Notes under the pieces: model-generated
Database searches by the model: none
Told to the model about the DNA's origin: nothing
The model's input: only the letters and a program-made list of their open reading frames with translations
Shown: in pieces, positions 9,708 to 35,232 of the stretch
How the letters are laid out: every line of letters begins with the position of its first letter
Numbering within the stretch: position 1 is the first letter of the stretch
Program-made: the position numbers and the translations under genes
Source of the DNA: Candidatus Dojkabacteria bacterium
GTDB taxonomy: Bacteria > Patescibacteriota > Dojkabacteria > J137
Assembly: GCA_025999215.1 (NCBI GenBank)
Contig: AP024679.1
Span: 433,082 to 497,081, forward strand
Length of the DNA: 64,000 nt
Direction: 5' to 3'

Positions 9708-9912
9708 TGATTAAATTTAAAATATTTTAATAATTATACCTTAAAATTAAAAATTACTCTAAAATTTCGAAAGGGGTAGTTAGATAATAACGTTAAAGTA
9801 TTTAGTATTCTAAAATTAAGAAAACCATTTTGCAGTTTTGGCTTTCTATGAGGATAACCAGGCCAGCAGCAAGGTCTATTTGCGCTTGTTGATTTTTTTT
9901 CTAAAATCAATA
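9672..9912. repeat. Direct repeat copy 1 (murA 5' end + promoter region + 3' remnant of a ydeI-like gene)
   Basis: The 146-bp core 9681-9826 matches 12179-12324 with about five substitutions counted by eye. More diverged homology continues to about 9912. The offset to copy 2 is 2498 bp in the same orientation. Confidence 0.85.
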
Positions 9913-10088
9913 AAAGATACAAAAATACACTCATCTTGTTTGGATGATTTTCACTTCCATGTAAGAGGTTTTATAAATATAGTTTAAATTATCTTTTTTC
10001 TGTATACTTTCCAGATTGTATTGTTCAGTAGATAGTATTTCAAACTTAAATTTCCATAATTGTCATTTTCTAACTTCTGTCAATAAGT

Positions 10089-12165: not shown

Positions 12166-12408
12166 CATCTAACTCTACGCCTCCTTTAATTTTGTATACA
12201 GCAATTGATTAAATTTAAAATATTTTAATAATTATACCTTAAAATTTAAAATTACTCTAAAATTTTGAAAGGGGTAGTTAGATAATAACGTTAAAGTATT
12301 TAGTATTCTAAAATTAAGAAAACCTTTTTTTCATTTTGGATTTCTGTGAGAACAACTAGGCCAGCAATAAGATGTTTTTGCACCTGTAGATATTTCTTTT
12401 TCTAAAAG
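12166..12408. repeat. Direct repeat copy 2 (dead murA 5' remnant + promoter copy + ydeI-like 3' end)
   Basis: Contains ATT GCT GTA TAC AAA ATT AAA GGA GGC GTA GAG, versus murA ATG GCT GTA TAT AAA ATT CAA GGA GGC ATA GAA. The upstream block is the same as in copy 1. Confidence 0.85.
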
Positions 12409-14686: not shown

Positions 14687-15963
14687 ATGGAATTTAATTT
14701 AGTTTCTGAGTATAAACCTGCTGGTGATCAACCACGAGCGATTGATACGCTTTCTAATGGTTTGCTTGCTGGGAATCAAGCACCAAACGCTTGGTTGGTG
14801 CGACCGGAACTGGTAAAACTTTTACAATGGCAAATATCATACAAAATCTTGGGAAACCTGCTTTAATTCTTTCTCACAACAAAACTTTAGCTGCTCAATT
14901 GTTTGCTGAATTTAAAAAATTTTTTCCTTACAATGCTGTTGAGTATTTTGTGAGTTACTACGATTATTATCAGCCTGAGGCTTATGTTCCCTCAAGAGAT
15001 TTGTATATTGAGAAAGATGCCGATATAAACGACACAATTGAGCGGTACAGGTCTTCAGCTAGCCAGTCGCTTTTGACAAGAAAGGATGTGATTGTAATTT
15101 CAACCGTTAGTTGTATCTATGGGCTAGGGAATCCTGCAGATTATTTAGAATTAAGTTTTGAATTTAATGTTGGGGAAAGTTATAAACGCGATAATATTTT
15201 AGCGCGACTAACAGATATGCAGTATGAAAGAAACCAACTTGATTTCATGCCTGGGAGTTTTAGAGCCATTGGTGAGATTATTGATATTTATTTAACAAAT
15301 GCAAATGATGAAGCTGTAAGGTTAGAGTTTTTTGGTGATGAATTGGAATCTATAAAGATAATTAATCCTCTAACAGGCGAGTTTGTAAAAAATTTAAATT
15401 CAGTTATTATTTTTCCTGCCAAACACTATGTAAGTCCACATCATAAACTAATGGAAACGATTGAAACAATAAGAGAAGATATGAAAAAAGAAGTTCAGCA
15501 ATTTTTGGATAAAGGAAAGGTGGTGGAAGCAACGAGACTTAAGCAAAGGGTTGAATATGATTTGGAAATGATTGCTGAAACAGGTTTTGTAAAAGGCATT
15601 GAAAATTATTCTAGATACATTGACAGAAGACCACCCGGAAGTGCGCCATCATGTTTAATTGATTATTTTCCTCATGATTACATTATGTTTATTGATGAAT
15701 CACATATAACTGTTCCGCAAATTGGAGGAATGTACAATGGCGATCGCGCACGGAAACAGAGCTTGGTAGATTATGGTTTTAGGATGAAAGCAGCGCTAGA
15801 TAATCGACCTTTGAAATTTGAAGAATTTGAACAAAAATTAAACCAAGTTATTTACACCACGGCAACGCCAAGGGATTATGAAATTCAGAAAAGCATGAAT
15901 GCAACAGAAGAAATTAGGGAAAAAAGCCCTCAAATATTCAGTGGAAAAATGTTAGAATATTAG
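14687..15963 (+). pseudogene. uvrB: UvrB N-terminal half (about 425 codons) with two single-nt frame disruptions next to the Walker A motif
   Basis: MEFNLVSEYKPAGDQPRAIDTLSNGLLAGNQ (frame a), HQTL (frame c) and VGATGTGKTFTMANII (frame b). The extra bases are about 14780 and 14793. It ends ...TATPRDYEIQKS plus a 22-aa tail and TAG. The rest of UvrB is at 63780. Confidence 0.85.
15953..15958 (+). promoter_or_regulatory. Extended -10 (TGTTAGAAT) 6 nt upstream of the DUF368 ATG
   Basis: aaaTGtTAGAATattagaATG. Confidence 0.35.
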
Positions 15964-16914: not shown

Positions 16915-18834
16915 TCACACCAAGGAAGCTTTGAGTCGCCTCAGGTTTGAGCCTATGTTTTCTTGTTTTAAAATTTTGAACTTTTTATTATTCTCTCCCA
17001 AAACTCCTGTTGTTTCAACATGCGGTCCTCCGCAAAACTCTTTTGAGAAACGCCTCATCTAAACTATTACCTATAAAATAAATGGTTACTTTGTCGGGAT
17101 ATTTTTGTCCAAACTCCATTTCTGCACCAATTTTTTGTGCTTCGCCTGAGAGGCATTTCTACTCTCTTCACTGGTAAATTTTCTGTGATCTTTTGATTGA
17201 CAATATCTTCAATTTTTTTGATTTCCTCTTCTGTAATTTTTTTTGAATAGTTAAAATCTATTCTTAATCTTTCAGAAGTTATGTTGCTACCTCTCTGGTG
17301 AATATTTTCGTCTAACACAAGCTGTAATGCTCTCAAAAGCAAGTGGTGAGCTGTGTGAAGCTTGGTTGTTTCGTGCGAGTGATCTGCCAAGCCTCCAGTA
17401 AATTTTTTTTGAGCGCCGGCACGAGATTGTTCTTTATGTTGTTCTAGCAACGTTTTAAAACCAACTATGTCTACTATAAATCCTATTTCTTTTGATAATT
17501 CTTGTGTCATTTCTACTGGAAATCCATAAGTTTCATAAAGATGGAAAGCTTCTTCACCTTTTAAGAAATTTCTATGAGGATTTTCGGATTTTTTGATATC
17601 AGTAACGATTTTGTAAAATTGCTTAATACCATTGTCTAGAGTTTTTCTAAATTTTATTTCTTCTTTATCTATTTCATCAATTATAAACATCTCCTTTTCT
17701 TTAAGATGAGGATAAGCATCTTTCATTTTTTCAATTACTAGGCTTGCCAAATCCTTGGTGAAATTTTTTTCTATTCCAAGAATTTTTGCATGTCTTATCA
17801 TCCTTCTGATTAAGCGCCTCAAAATATACCCTTGATCTTTGTTAGATGGCGCAATTCCATCGGCAAGAATAAAAGTTGATGCTCTTGCATGATCAGCTAT
17901 AATCCTGAATGCTTTCGTATATTTACTTCTGTTCTTCGTTGTGATCGTATTTGTGGCCTGATATATTTTCTATTGCGTTGATGTAGTCAATAAATAAATC
18001 AGTTTCGTAAACTGAGCGCTTGTTTTGAACTGTAGCGACAATTCTGTCTAGCCCTCCTCCATAATCAATGTTTTTTTGCTCCATAGGCTTCCATTTTCCA
18101 TCCTCAAATCTGTATTCCATAAAGACACTGTTTCCAATTTCTAAGTATCTTCCTGAATCATCATTAATGTGCAGTTTTTCTCCAGTATCATTTAATACTG
18201 TTTGCATATCATAAAAAATTTCTGAGCACGGTCCACCCAATTCTCCATTAACCTCGGGCCCTCTCTGCCACCAATTGTCTTTTTTACCATAAGGAAATAT
18301 TCTAAATTGCCAATTTTGACTTGATTCACCCTGTTGAGGAACATTTGTAATATCTTCACTAAATTTCGCTTCTATTCCATATTTTTTAAATGCCTTTATC
18401 CATGCGTCAATGGCTTCATCATCGCGAGGTATATTATCATCTCCTCCCCAGACGCTAGCAAAAATTCTTTGGGGATCAAGTCCGAACTTTTCTACATAAA
18501 GCTCCATTTTCCAAAGTATTTGTTCAGTTTTTGAAAAAGCGCCCAAAGACCAGTTACCGATCATTTCAAAAAAAGTTAAGTGATTGTAGTCGCCAACATC
18601 TTCAATATCATTTGTTCTTAGACATCTTTGTACATTACACAATCTTTTTCCCAAAGGATGAGGCTGTCCAGCTAGATATGGCACAAGTGGAAACATGCCT
18701 GAATTTACAAAAAGTAAAGTTGGATCATTATTTGGGACAAGGGATACATTCGGGATAATTTTTGCATTTCTTGGAGAACTTGTCCAAAATTTCAAAAATT
18801 CATTTCTTATTTCATCGGATGTTTTCATGAACAA
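16915..18834 (-). pseudogene. alaS: Alanyl-tRNA synthetase with three single-nt frame disruptions
   Basis: N-terminal catalytic part (FLKFWTSSPRNAKIIPNVSLVPNNDPTLLFVNSGM, FFEMIGNWSLG), middle part (AFRIIADHARASTFILADGIAPSNKDQGYILRRLIRR, HTAHHLL) and C-terminal part (GAEMEFGQKYPDKV, FSKEFCGGPHVETTG). The parts lie in successive +1 frames, with breaks near 17925, 17152 and 17050. Confidence 0.85.
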
Positions 18835-22096: not shown

Positions 22097-24664
22097 ATGA
22101 TACTACAAAAAATTTTTTTTACAATGAAATATTTAAAGTTAACAAAAAAAATATTCACTACAGTTTTGGTTTTTGGCATTTTTGGATTGGTTTTGCCTTC
22201 TATTTGGAGTGTAAATGCTATAGTAGATGTGCCTTTAGAGACTTACTCGAATACGCAGACAGAGGTAATTAAACCTACACCATCAATGAATGGTTTGTTT
22301 TGTTTTGTTCCTGCTGAAGTTAATCAAGCACTCTATGGATGTCCTATAGTTACAAGTTGTGGTTTCTTTAGTGATTTAATGTCTGTTGGTGAGACTGTTC
22401 TTTCTGGTACTACCTTTTTTAACACAGCATGTGATGCAACTAATGGAGATTCACAATTTAATCCTAATTCAGGAATTGGTTTAAATCACGTGGCATTAAA
22501 TGGTATTGATACTTTGTTAAACTTAAGACCTGTAAGTGGTGTAGATTATATTAACCAGAATGTTTATGCATTATCAAAGTTGGGTAACGTGAGCGCACAA
22601 GATGGTGGTAGGGTGCTTCCATATTATCCTGGACTTGGTTATCAGTTACAGGCACCAATGCAAGCTTTTTGGGGCTGGTCCGTTAATATAGTTTATGGTT
22701 TTTTGATAGTTTTGATAATTGTTGTAGCACTTGCAATAAGTTTCAGGCAAAGATTAGGCGGTAGCGCTGTTGTTACTTTACAAAATTCTATCCCAAATAT
22801 TGCTCTTGCTATGATTTTAGTACCACTCAGTTTTGCAATTACTGGTTTGTTTATTGATGCTATAACTGTCGGTTCGAATGTTGTTCATGGTTTTCTATTG
22901 GGACCTGGATCACCAGGTAGGGTTGTTATAGAAGGCGATGAAAACGATCGGCCCTTTAGTAGGGATCTATATCCAGATGATCCTGATTTACAGTTGTTAC
23001 AAGGAAGTATTGGAAACCCATTGGAATTATCTATTGAGGGTGGTACGGTTGGAGATGCTGCTTTTGATATTATTATTGGAGATAAAGGCACCACGAGGGA
23101 TGCAATTGATAAAGGTTTGTTAATTTTTTCTCCACTTTTTCCATTTGCAGCTATAACTATACTACTACAAGGTATATCTCAAATTCCAGTTGTTGGTGAA
23201 AGAACTACTTCTAGTATTTCTGAGTTGTTTGGTTTTGGCAGTGAGATTCCGCAGTTTGCAGCTTCGTGGTGGATAGGCCAATTTTTCACTTTATTTATGA
23301 ATATAATATTCTTTTTCACAGGTTTACGAATTTTATGGTTATTATTAAAAAAGTTTTTTGTTTTGATGATATCGCCTGTATTTTCTCCTTTTGTGTTTGC
23401 AACTATAGCAATTCCTGGAGTAGGTATGAAAAATGTTTATTCTTTTTTGAAATCACTAGGTGCTGTTTCAATATTTTATATTGTTGCTTATTCTATGATT
23501 TTGTTGGCAAATATTATTGGTAATATAAAATTTGTACAAAGCATAGAGCAACAATTTCAAGTTTCAGGTTATGTACCTCCATTACTAGGATTTAGTGGCA
23601 AATTTATTGAATTATCGGAAAAAATAATTAGTAGTGAAGGTACTGAAACTGGAGTCAATGCTTTAGTTTACTTGGTTATGTCTAGTGTTGCGGTTGTCAT
23701 CTATTTATCTATTCCAAAAACTCTAAGAGATATTGATAGAAGATTGGGAACAGATAGATCTATGTTAATGCCTATTTTGCAAGATACTATTCAGAGCGCA
23801 AGAGATTCTCTTGGAATTGGTAGAGAGTTAGGGTTATATGGTGCCAACTTAGCTGCGAGCGCCTACAATAGGTTTGCAGGTGTGGAAGCAGGGCAACCTG
23901 GAAGTGCGCAATACAGGTTTAGAAGATTTTTTTCTAACTCTTTGAATAGGTTAGATTCTCAATCAAATGATCCAAATAGGAGTTTTTTGGGTAGAGTTGC
24001 ATCTAGGTATGATAGGTTTGTAACAGGTCAAGTTGCTAGAGCTTTAGGTGTAACACCGCAAGGTTTTGATGAGCAAGGAAGGAGGTTGCCTGCTTCATTT
24101 AAGGTTCAATTTGTTCCAACTAAGTATGTAAATGAGTTTGGAATTATAACTTTTCCAAACTCATTCATTCAAGAAATATGTCAAGCAGCTACAGATGTTG
24201 GATCTAATAAATGGTCAATTGAGGGTTTTGTGATAATGAAGATAACTGCTGAAAATGCTGAGTTACCTTTTACATTTGATACAAATTCTGTTAGTATTCA
24301 AGAAGCAGTTAAAGCACCTGATGGTGCAACAGACATACCATCAGGTAAAACGGATACTCAAAGGTTGTATAAAGAGAAAGTAGATATATTTGGTGTGAGT
24401 AAAGCAACTAAAGGGGCTTTGTCCATTCAGCTGTCACCTAGATCTGCTCCTATGCCAACTGATGGTAAATCTGCAGGTATATTGTTTGATTTGGTTATAA
24501 ACGATGTAAGGAAATTGTTTGGATGGGATGGTCAAAAAATTGTAAAAGGGGACGCTATTATTTCAACTGTTTCCTCTGTCGTTATGTCGGACAAGATTTT
24601 CTTTGTTTTTAGGGATGGTGCTGCAGGACCAGTAAGGTTGCAATTGGGCGCAACACCTGATTAA
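22097..24664 (+). CDS. 855-aa polytopic membrane protein, possible VirB6/TrbL-like channel component (weak)
   Basis: Signal/TM segment, a Cys-containing ectodomain of about 180 aa, at least 6 TM helices, and an Arg-rich soluble C-terminal region of about 300 aa. The start may be the ATG at 22124 (MKYLKL). The VirB6-like idea rests on topology and context only. Confidence 0.55.
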   Translation: MILQKIFFTMKYLKLTKKIFTTVLVFGIFGLVLPSIWSVNAIVDVPLETYSNTQTEVIKPTPSMNGLFCFVPAEVNQALYGCPIVTSCGFFSDLMSVGETVLSGTTFFNTACDATNGDSQFNPNSGIGLNHVALNGIDTLLNLRPVSGVDYINQNVYALSKLGNVSAQDGGRVLPYYPGLGYQLQAPMQAFWGWSVNIVYGFLIVLIIVVALAISFRQRLGGSAVVTLQNSIPNIALAMILVPLSFAITGLFIDAITVGSNVVHGFLLGPGSPGRVVIEGDENDRPFSRDLYPDDPDLQLLQGSIGNPLELSIEGGTVGDAAFDIIIGDKGTTRDAIDKGLLIFSPLFPFAAITILLQGISQIPVVGERTTSSISELFGFGSEIPQFAASWWIGQFFTLFMNIIFFFTGLRILWLLLKKFFVLMISPVFSPFVFATIAIPGVGMKNVYSFLKSLGAVSIFYIVAYSMILLANIIGNIKFVQSIEQQFQVSGYVPPLLGFSGKFIELSEKIISSEGTETGVNALVYLVMSSVAVVIYLSIPKTLRDIDRRLGTDRSMLMPILQDTIQSARDSLGIGRELGLYGANLAASAYNRFAGVEAGQPGSAQYRFRRFFSNSLNRLDSQSNDPNRSFLGRVASRYDRFVTGQVARALGVTPQGFDEQGRRLPASFKVQFVPTKYVNEFGIITFPNSFIQEICQAATDVGSNKWSIEGFVIMKITAENAELPFTFDTNSVSIQEAVKAPDGATDIPSGKTDTQRLYKEKVDIFGVSKATKGALSIQLSPRSAPMPTDGKSAGILFDLVINDVRKLFGWDGQKIVKGDAIISTVSSVVMSDKIFFVFRDGAAGPVRLQLGATPD

Positions 24665-24674
24665 GGAAGTTTAC

Positions 24675-25691
24675 TTATTTAGCTCCAGCTCCTCTTAACC
24701 TATTAATCAATCCCACGACACTAGTTGGGTTCCTTTTGTCTCCAAAAAGAGCTTCAAAAAAGGTCCCTCCTAACGCACTTGTAAATTTACCGACATTGCT
24801 ATGAACTGGATTAAAAAGTGGCCTGGGCTTACTACCTTGTTCGAGTATATCCTTTATTGTTCTTGTATCTCCAAAAAAACTTGCAAAAAGACGAATTGGA
24901 AAAAGTTTTCTATTTTTTGTATACAAATAATTAACAGGTTTGTTTTTTCCTAGAGTTTGATACATATTACCTTCTATGTATGTTTGTGACTCCAAGCGAC
25001 TGCATGTTTTAAAAATTTTTTCAAAATACCTTATTTTTCTGTTTGGAATAGGGCGATTAAATTTTTTTGTAACAAGAAAACTATGAAAATCAGGATCTTT
25101 TGATTTTATTTTTTCAAGGAGCTCTATACGTCCTTGTATACTTTGTAGTTGCCTTTCTATAGGTAAAATTTGATTTAAGAGTGATTTTGGTAAACCATAT
25201 TCTTTTCGGAGCTCTTGTAAGACCCTTCTTCTTGCTTGCTGTTTAGACATAGCATTATTTGTTCCTAGTGTTTCAATTACTCTTTTTTCAAAAAAATTTT
25301 TTAAAGATTCTAAATCATTAGCTCTTTGTGCCTGATCGGTAGGGGTGGTAGTCGTTTGCTGTCCATTTGTAACATTTGGATTGTTTGTTTCAGTTGATGA
25401 TGAGAGTTCTTGTAATTTTTGATTAAGTCTTCCTATAAATTTATTTATAACATTTTCAACATCACTTGATTGAAGGGATTGTAATTCAGTAACTTCTATT
25501 CCAAGGGTTTGCCCGATCGGTTCAATAATCTCTTTAATGGTTGTAGTCAGCTTTTCGATATTTAGGTTAGCATTTGACTGTAGTTCTAATAGAAGTGCTT
25601 CCAATTCACTTAAAGCTTTATTCAAACTGTTTAAATTTTCATTTGTATTTTCTATTGGCTCGTTCGGTTGGGGTGGAATTGCTGATACCAT
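24675..25691 (-). CDS. Hypothetical coiled-coil protein
   Basis: Intact 338-aa ORF with an N-terminal heptad-like L/E/Q-rich region, a T/Q/N-rich linker and a basic C-terminal half. No family recognised. Confidence 0.5.
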   Translation of the reverse strand: MVSAIPPQPNEPIENTNENLNSLNKALSELEALLLELQSNANLNIEKLTTTIKEIIEPIGQTLGIEVTELQSLQSSDVENVINKFIGRLNQKLQELSSSTETNNPNVTNGQQTTTTPTDQAQRANDLESLKNFFEKRVIETLGTNNAMSKQQARRRVLQELRKEYGLPKSLLNQILPIERQLQSIQGRIELLEKIKSKDPDFHSFLVTKKFNRPIPNRKIRYFEKIFKTCSRLESQTYIEGNMYQTLGKNKPVNYLYTKNRKLFPIRLFASFFGDTRTIKDILEQGSKPRPLFNPVHSNVGKFTSALGGTFFEALFGDKRNPTSVVGLINRLRGAGAK

Positions 25692-25884
25692 TTTAATTTA
25701 CTAACATAAGAATTAATAAAACATGCCTGTAATTGTACTAATTTTATCAATTTTTAGTAATAATTAAAAATTTTTTATCAATTATATTTTTGTATTGTAA
25801 AATTTACCTTATAAGACTAAGTATTGAATAGTAAATTATTATTGATATAATTGTTTAATAATTAATCAATATATTTCAAAAGAT

Positions 25885-26424
25885 GTGAACAAATTAACTG
25901 AAATTTCTAATAGGTTTCGAGATAAAAAACTTAATGAGGTAACTAAAAAGTTAGCTAGAAAAGGTTTAGCTTCTGTTACTGGAGGGTCGTCTGAGCTTAT
26001 TCTAAAACTTAGAAATTTTGCAAAAAAACACAAAACTTTATCAATTACCATAGGATTATTTGCTTTTTTATTACCTTTATTACCCTTGTGTTTGCTTTTA
26101 TTTTTACCCCTTTTGTATGGTAATTTGCTTGATTTAGGGTATAGATTTGTAAAAGATAAATTACAAAGTATAATAAAAGATACTTTTTTAGACAGTATTT
26201 TTGGTGCTACATCAGATTTACCAACCTTTGCAGAAAATATTGAAAATGGCCGTTATTCCTGTATTGGTGATACTTATTTATTAGATACTCTTACGGGTGA
26301 AATTGTGAGTTTGTATGATATGTCACAGGAGCTTCAGGTAAATTTGACTTGTTTGCAACCTTTAGAGGTATATTTGGATCTGAAGTCGCAACAAAATATT
26401 AAAAATAGGTTTTTAGACAAATAA
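25885..26424 (+). CDS. Hypothetical membrane protein
   Basis: GTG start. One Leu/Pro-rich TM region (ITIGLFAFLLPLLPLCLLLFLPLLYG). No family recognised. Confidence 0.4.
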   Translation: MNKLTEISNRFRDKKLNEVTKKLARKGLASVTGGSSELILKLRNFAKKHKTLSITIGLFAFLLPLLPLCLLLFLPLLYGNLLDLGYRFVKDKLQSIIKDTFLDSIFGATSDLPTFAENIENGRYSCIGDTYLLDTLTGEIVSLYDMSQELQVNLTCLQPLEVYLDLKSQQNIKNRFLDK

Positions 26425-26593
26425 TTTTAAGTAGTTTTTTTTGACAAATTTATTTAGTAGAAAAACTAAGTGGAAATATTAATGGATGCTTACAAAATAT
26501 CATAAAGATTCTTGAGATCAATGATAGTTATAAAAATAACAGATGTGGTATAAACTTTAATTTTAAAAATTAAGTTAAACTAAATTTTGAGGT

Positions 26594-28318
26594 TTAAGTA
26601 TTTTTATTTTCAAAACTTTGAGGCTCATTGTAGGTCGGGGGCGTATAATAATTTGTAGTTATTGTAGTATCTGTAGCTGGTATTTGATATTGTTCCGTAA
26701 TTATTTCACTTTCAGTAGTTTTAATTTCTTCTTCTAATTCATCGGTGTCTCTTCTCCAAAGTGCGTACAGAAACCAAGGCACAAAAAGCAATACCAAAGA
26801 ACTAAAACAAATTAATAAAACTATAAATATTGAGTTTGGATTAATTTCTCGATTAAATAAAATTAAGCTTTCGTGTTTGTTTTGAGATTCTTCTCTCTCA
26901 AGAGGAGTTGGATCAACGCGAAACTGCCAATCAAAACTATTTGCTGCACCGCTTGTGTCACCTATTTCAACTTTTACATTGTGTAGACCTTCTTTTGCTA
27001 AATCTGTTGTAATGATACATCTAAACTCACTTTCGATCACTTCACAATTTTCCGAAATATCTTTTCCATCAAAATAAACTCTGAGGCTTTTCTCATCGAT
27101 GGATGAGTTTTGTGACGGTACTAATTTACCTTCAATTGTTTTTACCTCGGTAACAGTTGAATCTATTTCTGGTTTTACATTTAAAATCAAAGGAATGCTT
27201 GTTATTGTTTCATTTTGGTTTACCACAAACTTAGGAGAAACCTTACTTATTGCTATGCCATTATCAAACTGTACTTTAATTCGTAAGTAGTAAACTCCTT
27301 CACTCAAACTACTTACATCCCAACTAAATTTCCTTTCATTATTTTCAAGCTCAGCAATTTGAAAAAAGGTTTCTAAATTTGAACTATACTCAAGTATTTG
27401 TGATTTAGTTTGAGAATCTGGGCTTATTTCCCATACTATCTCTAGTAAATTATTTTCAATAATTTGGTCAGATTTTGGAGACAAAAATTCTAGAGAAATC
27501 TCAGCTTCTTTCATAGATTCACCATTATCTTGCTCTTCGTTTGGTTGATTGCTGTTAGAATTGTTTTGGCTTTGGTTAGATCCTAAAGATTCACTCACTT
27601 GAGTGTCTAAATTTTTTACGGTCAGTTTAAATTGTTGTTCAACTTCTCCACTTAATCCGTCATCAATTGAAATTATAACAGTGTAAGTGAGTTCACCTTG
27701 AGAAATTGTTGGCGTTTGAATTTTTAAGTTTGAACCGTTTAGTGTAACAAAGCTAGGAGCTTGCTTTATTCGAAAACTAATAGTATCACCATCAGCATCA
27801 AAACCTTCTAGTTTAAAAGTAAATTGCTCATTTTCATTCAAAATTAAATCATTCGGAAATTTTGTGAATGTTGGTAGTTCGTTTTGATTAGTGATTGTAA
27901 CAATTCTGGAGTTACAAACACTGTAGTAATTTTCGTTTTGGAGTTGTAAGCAAATTCTTAAACAATAATCTCCATCATTTAAATTGTTTGTGAGTGTTGA
28001 ATTTGTATTCCATGTTACAGTGTAGGGATCAGTTTGGCTAGATTGTCCAGTTGATGCGCTAGTTATACTTCCAAAATTTTGTGTGCAATTTTGTGAATCT
28101 AGAATTTCAGCCACAAAGGGGATGTTTTCGTTGTCATCATCATACATTATCCAAGAAACGTTTACTTCTCCTTTTAATTTTTTGTTGGGTGCAGGTTCAA
28201 TAACTTTAAAAACATCATTCACATCAGCTAGGGTGTTTGCTGTCGTATTTGTTTTAAAAAGTAAAAAAACTAGGCCAAGCGCTATAAAGCCAGTTAAAAA
28301 AATTTTGTTAAAATTCAT
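26594..28318 (-). CDS. Surface protein with Ig-like and cadherin-like (dystroglycan-type) domains and a C-terminal TM anchor
   Basis: Signal peptide. FKLEGFDADGDTISFRIKQAPSFVTLNG...YTVIISIDDGLSGEVEQQFKLTVKN is a cadherin-like/putative-Ig motif. C-terminal helix IFIVLLICFSSLVLLFVPWFLYALW. Confidence 0.65.
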   Translation of the reverse strand: MNFNKIFLTGFIALGLVFLLFKTNTTANTLADVNDVFKVIEPAPNKKLKGEVNVSWIMYDDDNENIPFVAEILDSQNCTQNFGSITSASTGQSSQTDPYTVTWNTNSTLTNNLNDGDYCLRICLQLQNENYYSVCNSRIVTITNQNELPTFTKFPNDLILNENEQFTFKLEGFDADGDTISFRIKQAPSFVTLNGSNLKIQTPTISQGELTYTVIISIDDGLSGEVEQQFKLTVKNLDTQVSESLGSNQSQNNSNSNQPNEEQDNGESMKEAEISLEFLSPKSDQIIENNLLEIVWEISPDSQTKSQILEYSSNLETFFQIAELENNERKFSWDVSSLSEGVYYLRIKVQFDNGIAISKVSPKFVVNQNETITSIPLILNVKPEIDSTVTEVKTIEGKLVPSQNSSIDEKSLRVYFDGKDISENCEVIESEFRCIITTDLAKEGLHNVKVEIGDTSGAANSFDWQFRVDPTPLEREESQNKHESLILFNREINPNSIFIVLLICFSSLVLLFVPWFLYALWRRDTDELEEEIKTTESEIITEQYQIPATDTTITTNYYTPPTYNEPQSFENKNT

Positions 28319-28354
28319 GCCTGATTATAGCAGTTTTTACTACAAATTTGCAGA

Positions 28355-29797
28355 TCAATCTAATTCTCCTGCACTATCTATCAAAATTTGAACATCGTTT
28401 TCGGCAGAAGATATTGCGCTCGAACTTGCATTCTTATCAATTAATTCTTTGAAAATTTCCTTAACTTGCAAACCCTTTACTTGACGCCAAGTTTTCGCAT
28501 GCGGCAAAGATTCATTGTAAATTTTTAAGTAACTATCACTTTCAAGTTCATTTGACATATCAAGCCTTGGGTAAAGAATTCCAAAGTCATACCCGTAGAA
28601 ATTTTTGATGTTATCACTAAGTTTTTTTAACTGCTGAGGCTCACTCATCCAGCTTAAGAAATCCCAAGCAACAGTTGAGTACGGTCTTGAGTTTGATACT
28701 ACTACCCCCCAGTAGTCCGTCCAATTAATTACAGGTTCATCTTGTCCTTGCAGTTGAGGAACTTGAGATATGCCAATATCCAAGCCTAAATCGTACTGTT
28801 TATTGTAAAAAAGTATGTCTCGCAATCTCCAACTTGGAGCATAAATCATTGCAGTTTTGCCTTCTAAGAAAGTTTTAGCATCGTTATCAAGGTTTGGACT
28901 CCAAGTTTGAAATTCATTTGTAGTAAAACTTTTATAAAAAATTATAGCATCAAGCGCATCTGGATCAGTTGAAAAAGTTGCATTACCATTTACATCTGTA
29001 AATTCTACCCCATTTTGTGCAAACAAAGTAAAAAGTAGTTGTGTTGGAAAGCTTACATTTTGAGAAGTTCCAGCAGCGAAACCAGCTTGAGTGATGATGT
29101 CACCATTTTTTTTGGTTAGATTTACTGCCACATTTCTAAATTCAGCCCATCCTGTTGGTGGAGCACTAATAGCGCTTTGTTGTAAAAGATCTTTGTTATA
29201 AATGATTGCAAAAGTGTCCATCCAAAGAGGAACCCCAATCACTTGACCGTTTGGTGCAAAATCGCTTACCACTGCTGGATAAAATTTACTTTGAAAAGTC
29301 TGCAAATTTTCTGTCGTGCTAATTCTTACATATGGCACATAATCAGCGGCCCAAGAGTTGTGAACCATAAACATATCTGGAATCTCAACGCTATTTCCAG
29401 ATGATATAACCCTATTCAATTCGCTATTGTATTGTTGCTCAGCGTTCTCAAATTTCCCACCGGGCCACTTATTGACATATTCAATTGTTACATTAGGCTT
29501 GATTGATTTATAATCGTCAAGCAGCGGGTTAACTACTTCTTCATCCACAAATACACCCCACCATTGTAGTACAACTGGGTCTGCATTAGCTGAATCAGGG
29601 GTTGAATTGTTTGATGAATTATTTGATCCAAGTAGTAAAAATATTAGTAAGATAAAGAGTATTATACCAATTACCACCAAAATTAATACCGCGAAGTTTT
29701 TGTTAGATGGAGGTTTAGAGCTTTTTTGCGTTGTTTCTTCGTAACTAAATGAAGGGTTAGCATACCCATAGGTTTGTGTTGTATAAGCATCTGCCAT
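28355..29797 (-). CDS. ABC-type extracellular solute-binding protein (family 1, sugar-type) with TM anchor, no adjacent permease or ATPase
   Basis: VVLQWWGVFVDEE, IPDMFMVHNSWAADYV, GVPLWMDTFAIIYNKDLL and GKTAMIYAPSW are typical family-1 SBP blocks. N-terminal helix FAVLILVVIGIILFILLIFLLL. Confidence 0.75.
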   Translation of the reverse strand: MADAYTTQTYGYANPSFSYEETTQKSSKPPSNKNFAVLILVVIGIILFILLIFLLLGSNNSSNNSTPDSANADPVVLQWWGVFVDEEVVNPLLDDYKSIKPNVTIEYVNKWPGGKFENAEQQYNSELNRVISSGNSVEIPDMFMVHNSWAADYVPYVRISTTENLQTFQSKFYPAVVSDFAPNGQVIGVPLWMDTFAIIYNKDLLQQSAISAPPTGWAEFRNVAVNLTKKNGDIITQAGFAAGTSQNVSFPTQLLFTLFAQNGVEFTDVNGNATFSTDPDALDAIIFYKSFTTNEFQTWSPNLDNDAKTFLEGKTAMIYAPSWRLRDILFYNKQYDLGLDIGISQVPQLQGQDEPVINWTDYWGVVVSNSRPYSTVAWDFLSWMSEPQQLKKLSDNIKNFYGYDFGILYPRLDMSNELESDSYLKIYNESLPHAKTWRQVKGLQVKEIFKELIDKNASSSAISSAENDVQILIDSAGELD

Positions 29798-29886
29798 ATA
29801 GATATACTATCACTATTTTTATAAAGTTTCTAATTTTTTGATTTTTTCTTTTTTGTCTAAAATTTAGTTTTAGTTTAAAATGAGTT

Positions 29887-31074
29887 ATGGCTAATTCGTT
29901 ATATAAAACAACAGCAAATGCTAGAAAAATTTTGTTTGCTTTTTTAGTATTTTCTTTGCTAATTGTTGTTAATGATTTTTACCAAAGTTTGTCAAAAACT
30001 CAAACAGATTTTGGTTTGAATTCTCAAAGAAGGTTTTATATGTCTACTAAGTTTTTTGATTTTTTAGATGATATTCCACCAGTTCCTGATATTCCAGGTA
30101 TTCCTCGTGATACAAATGATTCTCTAACTTATTCTGTTGAAGGAGTTTTTTCCGAATTTCCTGATATTTCTTATGTTTATACAATTGAAGAGCCAGCTGA
30201 AAAACTTCTCACATTTCAAAATGCACAAAATATTGCAAGTGAGCTTGGATTTAACTCAGAAAATTTTTCTGAAAGTGGCCAGTCTCAGGTTGTGTGGTCT
30301 AAAGATAATGGCGCTACAACTTTAACATTCGATAGGGTTTTACAGACATGGAATATGAAAACCGATTTGACAAACAATCCTCGATTTAATCCTGTTCAAA
30401 AAATTGTACAAAATCGTTTGAATAATTTATCTCTCACTTTGCTTAGTCGTATTAGGTTAAATGGAGGGAAGGGTTTTAATAATGGTTTATCTGAAAATAT
30501 TTTTTTAAAAAGGGAGGCAAATGGTGATTTGGTTGAAGTTACAGATTCAAATCAAGCACAGCTTATATTGTCAAATGCTTATAGAATACTACCTTTGGCT
30601 GATCTGAAACCACAGAGCGAACAGCCGGAACTATTACCTGGTGAAGTAAGACCTCGACCAGTTTCGGCAAAGGTTTATACTTCTGATCCTTTTCGTGGTT
30701 CTGCAAATTTTTTAACCAAGGGAAGTGAACCTGAAGATGACATTTACGAATTTTCTTTCATTAATTGGGAGTATGGTGTTGATGTAGGAGCTTATCCAAT
30801 TATCACTCCACAAGAAGCGTGGAATAATGTTCAGCAAGGTCAGGGAAGTTTGGTGTTTATAAGGCAACAAGGAGATAGTAGAATTGGTGGAAGAGATCCT
30901 TTAAATGTGAGAAGGTATGTTTTAGAAGCAGACAAAACAGAAATAGCTTTTTATGAACCTAGTGAGTGGAATGGTTTTGTTACTCCAGTTTATATATTTA
31001 GAGGAAGAGCTGAACTAGAGAACGGAAGGCAAGCAAGTTTTATATTTTATATTGATGCTCTTAAAAGATTATGA
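29887..31074 (+). CDS. Hypothetical TM-anchored extracellular protein, first gene of a three- or four-gene plus-strand run
   Basis: N-terminal TM helix (ILFAFLVFSLLIVVN). Overlaps the next gene by 4 nt (ATGA). No family recognised. Confidence 0.55.
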   Translation: MANSLYKTTANARKILFAFLVFSLLIVVNDFYQSLSKTQTDFGLNSQRRFYMSTKFFDFLDDIPPVPDIPGIPRDTNDSLTYSVEGVFSEFPDISYVYTIEEPAEKLLTFQNAQNIASELGFNSENFSESGQSQVVWSKDNGATTLTFDRVLQTWNMKTDLTNNPRFNPVQKIVQNRLNNLSLTLLSRIRLNGGKGFNNGLSENIFLKREANGDLVEVTDSNQAQLILSNAYRILPLADLKPQSEQPELLPGEVRPRPVSAKVYTSDPFRGSANFLTKGSEPEDDIYEFSFINWEYGVDVGAYPIITPQEAWNNVQQGQGSLVFIRQQGDSRIGGRDPLNVRRYVLEADKTEIAFYEPSEWNGFVTPVYIFRGRAELENGRQASFIFYIDALKRL

Positions 31075-32270
31075 AAAAATTACTAATAAGTCTAACAGTT
31101 TTAATGATTTTTTTTCAATTTATAAATTTTAATTCATACGCGTCGGGTTCATCAGACGCTGCTTGTAGTGATCCTGAGGTTAGAATAGGTAGAATAGCAT
31201 TTTTAACTGCTCTTGCAACTGAAATAATTAATAACCCGGGTATTGTGACTTATCTTAAGGAAGCAGTAGATAACCAATATGATGGTAATAGCTCTAATGA
31301 TTATTTTACTGGGCATTCACTAGATTATCAAGGAACTTTTTGTGAGGATAATGGTAAAGTATACTTGTTATGTACAGCAATGGATGGAAAGGTTTGTGTA
31401 AATAGATATTGGCATTTGTCAAGAGAAGAAGCTGATAACTTAGCAAAATCTGAAAATGATAGTACTTACGATGATGAAAAAGGACCTAGATTTGCAAATA
31501 CTTTAATTCCTGAAGAACAATATGATAATGAACTTTATCGTTGTGGTCAATTTTTAGAAAGTGACTTAAACTATGAACAACAAGATTTAGTTTATAGTGA
31601 ATATAATTTGTTTTATGTTCTGCGCAATCTTTATTTAGATTTTTTTTCTTCAATAAGCGTCACTGATGATGATCGTGATCAAGTTGATAGAAGTATTGCA
31701 GATATTTATGACACTTATAACCCTAAAGATATTGATGATCAGTATTTTTTTTCAACGGCACCGTATTCGGATTGGTTTGATATAAATTGGAATAGGCTTT
31801 ACAGTTGTGTTAATAGTGGGGTAACACAAGGGGACTTTTTCTATATTGATCGTGAAAAAGCAGATTCGGAATATAGACTTATTAATGACAACAATAACAA
31901 TAATAATAATAGTAACATAATTAGCAGTAAATGTAATGGAATAGATTGTTGTGCAGAAAATGATCAGCAATGTAGAAGTTGTGTAGGAGCTGGAGGAGTA
32001 TGGACGGCTGTTGGGTGTATAGATCCAAGTCCGGTTGGCGTGTTAACAAGGCTTGTGCAGTTAGGATTGGGAATAATGGGAGGAGTTGCGCTGATTCAAA
32101 TAATATATGCGGGCATAATGTACCAATCAGGAAATGAAGAGAAAATAAGGAAAGCAAGAGAGCAATTATTGGCAACGCTAACAGGGCTAGCGGTATTGGT
32201 GTTTAGCGTATTGATAGTACAAATATTAGGAGTTAATTTACTTGATACAGTACCAGCTGGTTTATTGTAA
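31071..32270 (+). CDS. Ectodomain fused to a VirB2/TrbC-like (T4SS-pilin-like) two-helix C-terminal module, paralog A
   Basis: Signal peptide and an N-terminal domain of about 290 aa. The Cys-rich knot is CNGIDCCAENDQQCRSC. It is followed by VGVLTRLVQLGLGIMGGVALIQIIYAGIMYQSGNEEKIRKAREQLLATLTGLAVLVFSVLIVQILG, i.e. helix, charged loop, helix, as in TrbC/VirB2-type pilins. Confidence 0.6.
   Translation: MKKLLISLTVLMIFFQFINFNSYASGSSDAACSDPEVRIGRIAFLTALATEIINNPGIVTYLKEAVDNQYDGNSSNDYFTGHSLDYQGTFCEDNGKVYLLCTAMDGKVCVNRYWHLSREEADNLAKSENDSTYDDEKGPRFANTLIPEEQYDNELYRCGQFLESDLNYEQQDLVYSEYNLFYVLRNLYLDFFSSISVTDDDRDQVDRSIADIYDTYNPKDIDDQYFFSTAPYSDWFDINWNRLYSCVNSGVTQGDFFYIDREKADSEYRLINDNNNNNNNSNIISSKCNGIDCCAENDQQCRSCVGAGGVWTAVGCIDPSPVGVLTRLVQLGLGIMGGVALIQIIYAGIMYQSGNEEKIRKAREQLLATLTGLAVLVFSVLIVQILGVNLLDTVPAGLL
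31938..32270 (+). repeat. Shared 3' module of the paralog pair (copy A)
   Basis: Homologous to 33168-33497. Positions 31992-32110 are identical to 33219-33337 (119 bp); the remainder differs mostly at synonymous sites. Confidence 0.9.
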
Positions 32271-32282
32271 TGTTATAGTATT

Positions 32283-33497
32283 ATGTTTGTGATACAGAAA
32301 ATATTAGGTAAAATTTTTCATAATTCAATAAATACATTCATATTCGTTTTTGTAGTAACTTTCATCTTTGTGTCGGTTTTTGGTAGTAATATCTCAGCAC
32401 AAATTTCCAATACGTGTACAATTGTGAATTATATAAACGAAAATGATATTGATTTGTTTAAAGACTTTTCTGTGTGTGATGTTGTTGTTACCAATGAAGA
32501 AAATCAGCTGATAGATGTTACACTGCCCGAATGCACTACAATAAAAGATTTACAAAACAATCAGTTTTTTTATTGTCCATATAGGGGAGGTGATGCGATA
32601 AGTTTGACTGAAACAGCAAGCTCTCAAGAAATTAGAAATGACTTAGAATCCTGTAAGGAAAAATGGAGAACAGGTCTTTTAAGTTTTGACGGTTTACCAA
32701 CAATTACAAATTTTTTACAAACGGATTCAGATATAGAAGAGTTGGTAACTTTTTTTCAGACAAATTCGGTAATTGAAATAGCAAATATTTGCTCAGTTAA
32801 TTCTGAAACAATAGTTGAAGCTGAAGATTGTCCAAGAATAGAAGGTAGTTTTTTCATGAATGATTTAGTTAGCCAAAACACTGTAGAATTATCTCTTACA
32901 GATATTTGCTTAAAAAAAACAGGCGTAACTCAAATTGATATACTCTACTCTTATGATTTGTCTTTTAATGATTTTGAGAAAACTGAAAATCCTCAAGGTA
33001 TTCTTTTAGCACGTTTTACTTTAGATCCAAGTGGTAGCGGAAAAGTGTTAAATTTACCGCTTACATCTGAAATAAATATCAACAATAGCAATCATTTAAT
33101 TGTATGGGTCAAGGAGGATAAGAGTCTAAATCTAAAATACTCCAAACCGAACTCTAATAATTGTCAAGGAATAGACTGTTGTGCTCCAGGAGATTTTGAA
33201 TGTAGATGTTTACAAAGTGGAGGAGTATGGACGGCTGTTGGGTGTATAGATCCAAGTCCGGTTGGCGTGTTAACAAGGCTTGTGCAGTTAGGATTGGGAA
33301 TAATGGGAGGAGTTGCGCTGATTCAAATAATATATGCAGGTATAATGTACCAATCAGGAAATGAAGAGAAAATAAGAAAAGCAAGAGAGCAGTTGTTAGC
33401 AACACTAACAGGACTTGCGGTATTGGTATTTAGTGTATTGATAGTGCAGATACTGGGAGTTAATTTACTAGATACGATTCCAGCTGGTTTATTGTAA
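32283..33497 (+). CDS. Ectodomain fused to a VirB2/TrbC-like two-helix C-terminal module, paralog B
   Basis: The N-terminal domain is unrelated to paralog A. The last roughly 110 aa are nearly identical to paralog A (CQGIDCCAPGDFECRC...GGVWTAVGCIDPSPVGVLTRLVQ...). Confidence 0.6.
   Translation: MFVIQKILGKIFHNSINTFIFVFVVTFIFVSVFGSNISAQISNTCTIVNYINENDIDLFKDFSVCDVVVTNEENQLIDVTLPECTTIKDLQNNQFFYCPYRGGDAISLTETASSQEIRNDLESCKEKWRTGLLSFDGLPTITNFLQTDSDIEELVTFFQTNSVIEIANICSVNSETIVEAEDCPRIEGSFFMNDLVSQNTVELSLTDICLKKTGVTQIDILYSYDLSFNDFEKTENPQGILLARFTLDPSGSGKVLNLPLTSEININNSNHLIVWVKEDKSLNLKYSKPNSNNCQGIDCCAPGDFECRCLQSGGVWTAVGCIDPSPVGVLTRLVQLGLGIMGGVALIQIIYAGIMYQSGNEEKIRKAREQLLATLTGLAVLVFSVLIVQILGVNLLDTIPAGLL
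33168..33497 (+). repeat. Shared 3' module of the paralog pair (copy B)
   Basis: See copy A. Confidence 0.9.
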
Positions 33498-33498
33498 T

Positions 33499-35232
33499 AT
33501 GAAATTTATAAAATTTGCACAACTTCTACAATCGCTAGAAAAAACTAAAAGCAGGAATGATATGACTAGTCTTCTGGCTGAATTTTTAGATGGTATAACG
33601 GAACAAGAGTTTGTTGTGGTTTACCTTATTCAAGGAAGATTGAAACCTAAGTTTGTAGATTTAGAATTTAATTTATCTCAAAAATTGATTCTCAAAGCTC
33701 TAGAAAATTTAGGTGATTCTAATATGCTTTTTAAAGATTTGGGAGATTGTGGTTTGGTGGCCGAAAAGCTTTGTAGTGATGCAAGTGATGATTTAGAAAT
33801 TGTTGAGGTTTATGAAAAACTTATTGAAATTGCAAACTTGAAGGGAGCGGGATCTCAAGATTCTAAAATTGAAATGTATCTTGAATTGATTAAGAATGTA
33901 AAACCTCTGAGTGCAAAATACATTACAAGAGTAATTGTGGGTAATTTGAGATTGGGTTTGAGTGATAAAACTATTTTAGATTCAATTTCTTGGCTTAAAA
34001 AAGGTGATAAGTCATTAAGATCAATTTTAGATAGAGCTTACGGCATAAGGTCAGATATTGGAGAAATTACTAAAATTACCTTATTCAATAAAGATTTTGA
34101 AAATATTCTAAACTCAATTTCACTAAAGCCTCTAACACCTGTAGCTTCAAAACTCGTTGAAAGAGCAAAAGATACAAAAGAAGTTTGGGAGCGTATGCCA
34201 AATTGTTTTGTGCAGCCCAAATTAGACGGATTAAGAGGACAAATTCACTATGATGGGAATGAAAATGTTGAAATATTTAGTAGAAATATGGAAAGGTTAA
34301 CTTTGCAATTTCCTGAAATTGTTGAGGAAATAAAACAAAATTTTAATAATTCCTTTATCTTGGATTCTGAAATAATAGGTTGGGATGAAGAAAATAAAAC
34401 TTTTTTACCCTTTCAAGAAACAATTAAACGAAAAAGGAAATATGATATTCAAAACCACCTCAAATCGATTCCTATAAAGGCAATGTGTTTTGATGTTTTG
34501 TATTTTGATGGAACTGATCTTACCCAAAAGCCACTAAATGAAAGGATAAATATTTTGTTCAAAAATTTTGGAAGTAAGAGTAGGTTTTTGGAAATTTTAG
34601 AAACAAAGCAGATAGCATCACTTGATGAACTAACCACGTATTTTGAAGAAAAAGTGTATAGTGGTTTGGAGGGAATTATCACAAAACAATTTGATTCATT
34701 TTATGAACCAGGGACAAGAAATTTTAGCTGGATAAAACTCAAAGCAAACACTGTGTCAAGTTTAGTAGACACGATTGATGTTGTGGTTTTAGGTTATTAC
34801 TACGGAAAGGGAGCTCGAGCAAAGTTTGGTGTAGGGACCTTGTTGGCAGGAGTTTATGACCCTGATAAAAATGAATATTATTCTTTAGGGAAAGTTGGTA
34901 GTGGTTTTACTGACGAAGATTTGAAAAAAATAAAATTTGATTTATGTCAAATTCAGATTTCGGAAAAACCAGATAATTTTATAGTTGATAAAAATATATA
35001 TCCGGACGTTTGGGTTGAACCTAAAATTATAATGGAAATTGTTGCTGATGAAATTACAAGGAGTAATGTACATACAGCAGGCAAAGGTTTTCGGACAAAA
35101 GTAAAAAACGATGATTTTCAAAAAGGTCTATCAATCCGATTTCCAAGGATGAAAATTTGGAATCGCCAAGATAAAGACATTCCTACAACTGTGACTGAAC
35201 TTGTCCGAATGTACGAATTAAGAAAAGGTTAG
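33499..35232 (+). CDS. lig: ATP-dependent DNA ligase (Lig1/archaeal-type)
   Basis: Motif I KLDGLRGQIH (AMP-lysine), FILDSEIIG, EGIITK and WIKLK. A DNA-binding N-domain and an OB-fold C-domain. Starts 1 nt after the paralog B stop. Confidence 0.9.
   Translation: MKFIKFAQLLQSLEKTKSRNDMTSLLAEFLDGITEQEFVVVYLIQGRLKPKFVDLEFNLSQKLILKALENLGDSNMLFKDLGDCGLVAEKLCSDASDDLEIVEVYEKLIEIANLKGAGSQDSKIEMYLELIKNVKPLSAKYITRVIVGNLRLGLSDKTILDSISWLKKGDKSLRSILDRAYGIRSDIGEITKITLFNKDFENILNSISLKPLTPVASKLVERAKDTKEVWERMPNCFVQPKLDGLRGQIHYDGNENVEIFSRNMERLTLQFPEIVEEIKQNFNNSFILDSEIIGWDEENKTFLPFQETIKRKRKYDIQNHLKSIPIKAMCFDVLYFDGTDLTQKPLNERINILFKNFGSKSRFLEILETKQIASLDELTTYFEEKVYSGLEGIITKQFDSFYEPGTRNFSWIKLKANTVSSLVDTIDVVVLGYYYGKGARAKFGVGTLLAGVYDPDKNEYYSLGKVGSGFTDEDLKKIKFDLCQIQISEKPDNFIVDKNIYPDVWVEPKIIMEIVADEITRSNVHTAGKGFRTKVKNDDFQKGLSIRFPRMKIWNRQDKDIPTTVTELVRMYELRKG

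Follow-up and report, generated by a model that had tools for sequence, protein, structure and literature searches.

VirB2-like pilin hairpins fused to cysteine-rich ectodomains in a conserved envelope locus of Dojkabacteria

We analyzed a stretch of 64,000 nt (the window) of contig AP024679.1 (862,240 bp) from KatS3mg085, a metagenome-assembled genome of Candidatus Dojkabacteria, which belongs to the candidate phyla radiation. The window contains an envelope locus (22097–33497) that ends in two tandem genes, whose products each join a large cysteine-rich ectodomain to a C-terminal helical hairpin of PF18895, a pilin family of type IV secretion systems (T4SS). We give even chances to the proposal that this locus represents an envelope module, dispersed in the chromosome, of a Patescibacteria-type (monoderm, MPF_FATA-like) T4SS; the locus itself is conserved across the Dojkabacteria. 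A first-pass annotation of this DNA had described eight consecutive genes for membrane or extracytoplasmic proteins here and had suggested a host-contact or appendage locus. That suggestion is partly supported overall, and a relation to T4SS is now better supported than it was. The eight open reading frames (ORFs) lie exactly where they had been placed, and hydropathy scans find a signal peptide or a transmembrane (TM) segment in seven of the eight products; the 338-aa coiled-coil protein has neither.

The two fusion proteins are encoded in tandem. Fusion 1 (399 aa, 31071–32270, plus strand; identical to KatS3mg085_447) and fusion 2 (404 aa, 32283–33497, plus strand; identical to KatS3mg085_448) match PF18895 when the full proteins are compared to Pfam (28.3 and 27.2 bits, respectively, with a cutoff of 26.6). 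The 105-aa module on its own reaches 32.2 bits, and PF18895 is matched by 23 of 28 related modules with E values of 0.01 or better (the best is 3e-9). Both proteins have an N-terminal Sec-type signal peptide and two C-terminal TM helices, as judged by the hydropathy scan. With the help of the alignment, we place TM1 at about residues 324–349 and TM2 at about residues 373–398, on either side of a short basic loop (SGNEEKIRKAREQ). The predicted arrangement corresponds to a VirB2-type pilin, with a signal peptide, an N-terminus on the outside, TM1, the basic loop, TM2, and a short tail that is also outside. Also, a Cys-rich junction (C..C....GG.WTA.GC) is conserved just ahead of TM1 across the family alignment.

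The modules of the two fusions are nearly the same protein. They correspond to a 295-nt direct repeat (31977–32271 and 33204–33498, plus strand) with 92% DNA identity. The last ~95 residues differ by a single V/I change (~99% protein identity over the last 92), and the BLASTP alignment of the paralogs is confined to the last 115 residues (90% identity). Within the last 92 codons, we found 16 synonymous differences and 1 non-synonymous difference; all 16 synonymous differences fall in the final 53 codons, and the paralogs do not differ in DNA over the module's first ~40 codons. Because the differences are so heavily synonymous and are confined to the 3' part, after ~40 identical codons, the sequences indicate that the hairpin modules are under strong purifying selection and that they have a mosaic or recombining history, rather than being just the product of a very recent duplication. 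The hairpin, including its loop, is also 100% identical in P0002, a related protein whose overall identity is 41%.

The ectodomains, unlike the modules, diverge rapidly. Fusion 1 has an orphan ectodomain of ~260 aa, followed by a poly-Asn linker, the Cys-rich junction, and the hairpin (12 Cys in the whole protein). Fusion 2 has a similar architecture (14 Cys in the whole protein) with an unrelated ectodomain: pairwise BLASTP of the two window paralogs found no similarity between their ectodomains, and the ectodomains match nothing in Pfam or the PDB. Similarly, in the closest related locus (L001), the ectodomain does not align significantly with its counterpart, though 79 of 95 module residues are identical. 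In the same comparison, the housekeeping neighbors are 60–76% identical, the 395-aa protein of the locus is 64% identical, and its 574-aa and 855-aa proteins are 46–51% identical.

When we searched 1.84 billion representative sequences with the 115-aa module as the query, 6,502 representatives matched at E up to 1e-3 and 1,441 matched at E up to 1e-10. The module (~95 aa) lies at the extreme C-terminus of every one of the 151 closest representatives, which have a median length of 478 aa (127 are at least 300 aa and 9 are at most 200 aa) and a median of 16 cysteines in their N-terminal parts. The fused N-terminal regions span 200–650 aa, and among the relatives listed the proteins reach 773 aa. 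Judging from these sequences, a large, Cys-rich, variable ectodomain with a C-terminal pilin hairpin is a common architecture. Neither the Patescibacteria T4SS papers that we searched nor a broader text search yielded an account of such fusions. Because 6,502 clusters match and most of the close relatives are long, we view the fused pilin as a common undescribed architecture and not as an oddity of one genome.

Two variants of the module stand apart. In P0218 (501 aa) and P0226 (552 aa), which come from the representative library without a locus, six VirB2-like hairpin modules are arranged in tandem in each polypeptide ("poly-pilins"), and each repeat keeps the pattern of helix, basic loop, and helix. 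In locus L018, from a deep-sea Dojkabacteria genome, an in-frame TAA (9412–9414) splits a fusion-type gene (8725–9915) between the ectodomain and the Cys-rich junction with its module. The interruption may reflect a pseudogene, a split gene, or an error of assembly. We considered whether it was a natural short pilin and rejected this idea, as the short ORF is the product of the in-frame TAA inside a fusion-type gene.

The first gene of the locus (22097–24664, plus strand; KatS3mg085_441) encodes an 855-aa polytopic membrane protein, which its predicted fold leads us to assign as an extended VirB6-like T4SS platform; we think that it probably is VirB6-like. The first-pass annotation was right that it is polytopic, as the hydropathy scan finds ~7–8 hydrophobic helices, and VirB6/TrbL proteins are expected to have at least 5. 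The layout is an N-terminal TM segment, a small ectodomain, a helical TM core (~180–560), a helical region (560–650), and a beta-rich C-terminal domain (660–855). An AlphaFold2 model from a 78-sequence alignment has a mean pLDDT of 75.8, with values above 90 in the helical membrane core, and the predicted fold appears to come nearest to two VirB6-class proteins, DotA and TrwI. A Foldseek search with the model gave no significant match; R388 chain 8rtd_L had the top target-normalised TM-score of the list (0.43). A recent nomenclature review treats DotA as a VirB6 component (DotA_B6), and the paper on the structure of DotA describes the similarity of DotA and VirB6 as limited. The size and the layout are also compatible with the "extended VirB6" class, whose members have 700–900 aa and additional hydrophilic domains. 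Nearly all of the 83 homologs of the 855-aa protein are 790–960 aa, and every homolog with a named source is labelled Dojkabacteria.

Sequence profiles do not make this link. Neither Pfam nor NCBIfam has a family that matches the protein at E up to 1, VirB6/TrbL included. Comparing the family by hhalign to three annotated VirB6 proteins from MPF_T plasmids gave a probability of 0.85%, which is not significant. The sole aligned stretch pairs AASWWIGQFFTL with AAKWIGQLITY (a conserved "W-IGQ" motif), in which the Trp is invariant across those three VirB6 proteins. The family profile has no significant match to PDB sequences. (Its residues 517–671 give a non-significant match to TrwJ/VirB5 of R388, with E of 5.8, which is too weak for interpretation but has a bearing on whether the VirB6-like protein carries a fused VirB5-like element.) Unlike VirB6/TrwI of R388, DotA of Legionella, and the extended VirB6 proteins of Rickettsiales and MPF_FA systems, the 855-aa protein has no TrbL/VirB6 profile match; its beta-rich domain (660–855) has no assigned counterpart in those systems, and no VirB5 partner was recognised. 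The identity of this protein matters because VirB6 has been proposed, in R388, to be a docking platform for VirB2 pilins and because profile searches miss VirB6 in some Patescibacteria: it appears to be scarce in Microgenomatia and absent in Gracilibacteria, which are both well-sampled classes (Quinonero-Coronel et al., 2025, PMC12102498).

Immediately upstream of the fusions is the gene for a 395-aa TM-anchored protein (29887–31074, plus strand; KatS3mg085_446), whose stop codon overlaps the start of fusion 1 by 4 nt (ATGA). It has one N-terminal TM segment in the hydropathy scan, and its structural model (pLDDT of 83.6, pTM of 0.78) has a multi-domain fold that resembles YycH, YycI, and YpeB. 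On the strength of the model, it appears to be a membrane-anchored YycH/YycI-like extracytoplasmic protein and no recognisable part of a T4SS. It does not match the Pfam families for YycH or YycI, and its family profile has no match to PDB sequences. We considered VirB8 (which has an NTF2 fold) and VirB5 as identities for this protein and rejected both, as the fold is YycH/YycI-like. Compared to YycH and YycI, which regulate WalK, and to the C-terminal domain of YpeB, the setting is different: the gene is coupled to a pilin gene and not to a two-component system, and there is no WalK-type kinase nearby.

We compared ~20 distinct related loci, from assemblies, GTDB representative genomes, and JGI metagenomes, and the genes are not scattered: their order recurs across these Dojkabacteria loci. 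The usual order is the 855-family gene, variable genes, a gene for a small TM protein, the 574-family gene (an Ig-like surface protein), the gene for a solute-binding protein (SBP), the 395-family gene, one or two pilin fusions, and DNA ligase, followed by a methyltransferase, YggT, and UvrC. A scan of metagenomes gave seven loci, all with identical synteny. The 395-family gene adjoins a pilin fusion in 15 of the 18 distinct Dojkabacteria loci that hold it, and in the relatives these two ORFs often overlap or almost touch. Tandem pilin fusions are also present in L015/L032. Two rearranged loci are informative: in L010, the block of 395-family, pilin, SBP, and 574-family genes has been kept whole, and L018 has the pilin, 395-family, and 855-family genes side by side. 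As far as sequences can show, the ORF overlaps and these two rearrangements are stronger arguments for linkage than the gene order is. Separately, L007 (8031–8728) and L008 (8022–8719) have a HEPN/nucleotidyltransferase (NTP_transf_2) pair between the SBP and 395-family genes, which implies that this divergent intergenic region tolerates insertions.

How might such a module work? We propose that the fusions would be exported by Sec and inserted into the membrane through the hairpin. After the signal peptide is cleaved, the hairpin would lie in the membrane, with the basic loop in the cytoplasm and the ectodomain outside. A VirB4 that is encoded elsewhere in the genome would then extract the hairpins at the VirB6-like platform (whose gene is ~6.4 kb upstream), and the extracted hairpins would stack up as a short stalk or pilus. 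Along this filament, or at its tip, the fused ectodomains would be displayed as exchangeable heads for adhesion or host binding, in analogy to the two-domain adhesin FimH. The 395-aa protein, which is translationally coupled to fusion 1, might handle or regulate the membrane pool of fusions, and the divergently transcribed operon for the SBP and the Ig-like surface protein might provide an accessory pair for surface recognition or uptake. In cryo-EM structures of the F-pilus and the T-pilus, the N-terminus of mature VirB2 is on the outer face of the conjugative pilus. Because of this orientation, exterior ectodomains are topologically allowed.

Several observations weigh against a T4SS module. 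First, links from the hairpin to classical pilins are weak. The fusions score 13.3 bits on PF04956 (TrbC/VirB2), with a cutoff of 27.9 and E of 0.1; comparing the module alignment by hhalign to four annotated VirB2/TrbC proteins from MPF_T plasmids gave a probability of 2.9%, with TM1 alone in register; and the module profile matches no PDB sequence at E up to 10. Second, we found no VirB4, VirB3/PrgI, TrsD, or VirD4 in the window or, in the ~0.55 Mb of related loci that were searched, within ~10 kb of the anchor gene. Third, a packed VirB2 helix may leave no room for a globular head of 260–650 aa on each subunit. Fourth, L002 and L011 have a 395-family gene without a neighboring pilin, and distant 395-family homologs (~21% identity) in a WWE3 genome stand alone amid housekeeping genes. 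Finally, the housekeeping genes that flank the locus (DNA ligase, methyltransferase, YggT, UvrC, and a P-type ATPase) are equally syntenic.

The first of these points affects how the modules should be classified. The first-pass annotation had noted that the C-termini look like T4SS pilins, and this is borne out for PF18895 and not for the classical family, where the match is sub-threshold. Because the PF04956, hhalign, and PDB links are weak, the modules, by their sequence profile, belong under PF18895 (VirB2-like) and outside of classical TrbC/VirB2. At 399 and 404 aa, the fusions are far longer than the small precursor (~100–150 aa) that is expected of a T4SS pilin. The profile for the Mbov_0395-family pilin-like conjugal transfer proteins of Mycoplasma integrative and conjugative elements (NF045849) also matches the hairpin weakly (E of 0.013; 15 bits, with a cutoff of 40). 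That family likewise has a wall-less or monoderm MPF_FATA context, but its proteins are small (~80 aa), unlike the Dojkabacteria fusions. As for steric packing, if this genome has a short major pilin as well, the fusions may serve as minor subunits or sit at the tip.

The lack of an ATPase in the window had been noted before. Our Pfam scan of the window covered ORFs of at least 110 aa, with the exception of a few short ORFs overlapping longer genes (the annotation of locus L009 served to identify two small ORFs close to the end of the window), and we searched stop-free stretches of at least 100 aa for Walker A motifs. In agreement with the first-pass annotation, these scans found no ATPase of the VirB4, VirD4, or PilB type, no sortase, and no ABC permease in the window, and the lone Walker A motif belongs to UvrB at 14797. 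The search for an ATPase in the related loci covered ~0.55 Mb in all and used BLAST, a Walker A scan, and a weak VirB4 hidden Markov model built from three sequences. Among Patescibacteria, VirB4 is present in 2,417 of 3,035 assemblies, and VirB2-like genes are present in 1,948 of the VirB4-positive assemblies and are near virB4 in 1,135 of those (Quinonero-Coronel et al., 2025, PMC12102498). Because so many of these assemblies have their VirB2-like genes elsewhere, a pilin locus that is distant from the ATPase is not unusual for the phylum. The preprint of the same study includes Dojkabacteria among the T4SS-bearing lineages; in its Table S1 (PMC12102498), both of the Dojkabacteria among the rows listed are VirB4-positive (2/2), and the class is mentioned at least five times. 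Dispersal of the T4SS genes is the most likely explanation for the missing ATPase.

The same study reports 441 pilin arrays of 2–11 genes each in Patescibacteria (PMC12102498), and in the Saccharibacterium Southlakia epibionticum, epibiotic growth requires the T4SS together with its VirB2-like pilin genes (Wang et al., 2023, PMC10633639). The Dojkabacteria locus shares with these arrays (such as SEML1_0006–0019 of S. epibionticum) the PF18895 family, the phylum-level lineage, the monoderm context, and tandem pilin genes, and, as in many of the published assemblies, its pilins have no virB4 close by. In contrast to the described arrays, the Dojkabacteria pilin is the C-terminal ~95 aa of a 399–404-aa protein with a Cys-rich variable ectodomain, and the modules of its paralogs are nearly identical, while identity within the published arrays averages 25% and reaches at most 54%. 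A further difference is the linkage, across the class, of the fusions to an extended and divergent VirB6-like gene, to a YycH/YycI-like gene, and to the SBP/Ig-like pair. The logic of a variable receptor-binding head on a conserved module for polymerisation or anchoring recalls FimH, which joins a lectin domain to a pilin domain in chaperone-usher pili. This is an analogy only, as fold and assembly are different (an Ig-like pilin domain and donor-strand exchange, versus a membrane helical hairpin).

A more specific form of the T4SS proposal is that, in Dojkabacteria, the VirB2 hairpin has turned into a modular "display handle" at the C-terminus, which loads hundreds of large, Cys-rich, hypervariable ectodomains onto a VirB6-like platform, in a filament or stalk derived from a T4SS. 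Such a pilus would consist of, or be tipped by, interchangeable adhesins. New heads would then arise by recombination at the conserved module, which is consistent with the 120-nt DNA-identical junction between the two paralogs. In a stronger version, the VirB6-like protein and the fusions may operate without a dedicated VirB4. We hold the display-handle idea tentatively, as a possibility that we would sooner doubt than accept.

Another possibility is that the hairpin is just the C-terminal membrane anchor of ordinary surface proteins, which would not polymerise and would not depend on a T4SS ATPase or on the 855-aa protein. This would fit with the failure to find an ATPase either in the window or in the related loci, with proteins that consist mostly of ectodomain (a median of 478 aa, versus ~95 aa for the module), and with the difficulty, as we see it, of packing a large head on every subunit. 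However, a plain anchor does not need to be nearly invariant (16 synonymous versus 1 non-synonymous differences between the paralogs, and 100% identity in P0002), and it does not need a conserved Cys-rich junction motif ahead of it. Nor would it explain why a VirB6-like gene is consistently linked and, in L018, contiguous. The extreme conservation of the hairpin and the linkage to VirB6 argue against a role as an anchor alone, and we consider this explanation to be rather unlikely.

A second alternative is that there is no functional unit: the pilin genes, and perhaps the VirB6-like gene, would belong to a T4SS, and the other envelope genes would be unrelated neighbors in the frozen gene order of a small genome. 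Because the housekeeping flanks are just as syntenic as the locus, gene order is weak evidence of a common function. Also, the 855-family gene lies apart from the pilin in L002 and L003, the distant WWE3 homolog of the 395-aa protein stands alone amid housekeeping genes, and a YycH/YycI-like fold is not a known part of a T4SS. This alternative does not account for the 4-nt overlap of the 395-aa and fusion 1 genes in the window, with ORFs that overlap or almost touch in the relatives, or for the adjacency of these genes in 15 of 18 distinct loci. The joint movement of the 395-family, pilin, SBP, and 574-family genes in L010 and the contiguity of the pilin, 395-family, and 855-family genes in L018 are also hard to reconcile with it, and it seems distinctly improbable to us.

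Finally, the precursors from which VirB2-family pilins are matured have long leaders, so the N-terminal region could be an extreme case of a TraA/VirB2 leader that is cleaved to free a pilin of normal size, and the in-frame stop of L018 between ectodomain and module does show that the module could stand alone, but this is very improbable given that the N-terminal regions are 200–650 aa, are Cys-rich (median of 16), have their own Sec signal peptide, and are kept as open reading frames across hundreds of clusters, and that the locus encodes no processing protease.

Apart from the fusions, the VirB6-like protein, and the 395-aa protein, the locus proposed as a T4SS module encodes four other proteins. 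The 338-aa coiled-coil protein (24675–25691, minus strand), which lacks TM segments and a signal peptide in the hydropathy scan, is evolving quickly: the protein in the corresponding position in L001 has 583 aa, and the common part is a C-terminal tail of ~50 aa. We rejected the idea that it is a VirB1-like lytic transglycosylase, as SLT_2 and MltB are far sub-threshold (15–17 bits). The 179-aa protein (25885–26424, plus strand), with a single TM segment in the hydropathy scan, is weakly conserved (26% identity to the product of a 145-aa gene in the same slot of L001).

The other two are encoded by the minus-strand pair that diverges from the 395-aa gene. The 480-aa family-1 SBP (28355–29797, minus strand) is MalE/UgpB-like, matches SBP_bac_8 (6e-23) and SBP_bac_1 (1e-17) in Pfam, and is anchored by a TM segment at residues 37–55. 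No BPD_transp or ABC_tran domain, which would indicate a permease or ATPase partner, is present in the window or beside the SBP gene in the gene-annotated related loci. The 574-aa Ig-like (Big_7)/cadherin-like surface protein (26594–28318, minus strand), identified from Pfam and hydropathy, has a signal peptide, a Big_7 match just above threshold (4e-5), a cadherin-like motif, a C-terminal TM segment, and a cytoplasmic tail; it has no LPXTG motif and no match to PDB sequences. On the same strand, its gene follows the SBP gene after a gap of 36 nt, and in relatives the two ORFs overlap. In most of the related loci, a homolog of the 574-aa protein (574–940 aa) directly follows the SBP gene.

Downstream of the fusions is an ATP-dependent DNA ligase (33499–35232, plus strand; Pfam DNA_ligase_A_N/M/C), which starts 1 nt past the stop of fusion 2 on the same strand and is, judging from this arrangement, probably co-transcribed with the pilin fusions. 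A ligase also follows the pilin fusion on the same strand in L001, L005, L007, L008, L013–L017, L019, and L030–L036; the two ORFs in these relatives overlap or are separated by one or a few nt, and the position is kept in nearly all loci. A scan for promoters and terminators gave counts equal to those in shuffled sequence and was uninformative.

The rest of the window (GC of ~31%) is chromosomal housekeeping according to the Pfam scan, with genes for ClpP, ThrRS, MutL, MurA/B/C, AlaRS, a P-type ATPase, the DNA ligase, UvrC, MraY, a class II ribonucleotide reductase, TGT, and others, and Rfam matches four tRNAs and nothing else. Some of these genes look broken. Between 16458 and 18834, AlaRS is present as two ORFs (17923–18834 and 17067–17822, minus strand) but as one 637-aa gene in L001, and a VCA0040-like ORF is 116 aa versus 310 aa in L001; these could reflect frameshifts, pseudogenes, or assembly errors. 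UvrB is apparently split as well, with its N-terminal half at 14791–15963 (390 aa, versus 424 aa in L001) and its C-terminal half (295 aa, with Helicase_C, UvrB, and UVR domains) at L009 1776–2663, which is beyond the window end, ~48 kb away, and adjoins SSB. Also, a 233-nt direct repeat (88% identity; 9668–9900 and 12166–12398) brackets a minus-strand ORF (10089–12113) for a 674-aa protein with tandem ~31-aa repeats and no Pfam match. One copy of this repeat overlaps the 5' end of murA.

Patescibacteria rely on host cells, and in the single species that has been tested genetically, the T4SS with its pilin array is essential. If our proposal for this locus is correct, then in Dojkabacteria the filament itself would bear the host-recognition heads, which is a concrete and testable idea for a monoderm T4SS, and the 855-aa protein would be a candidate VirB6, a component that has escaped profile searches in several classes of Patescibacteria.

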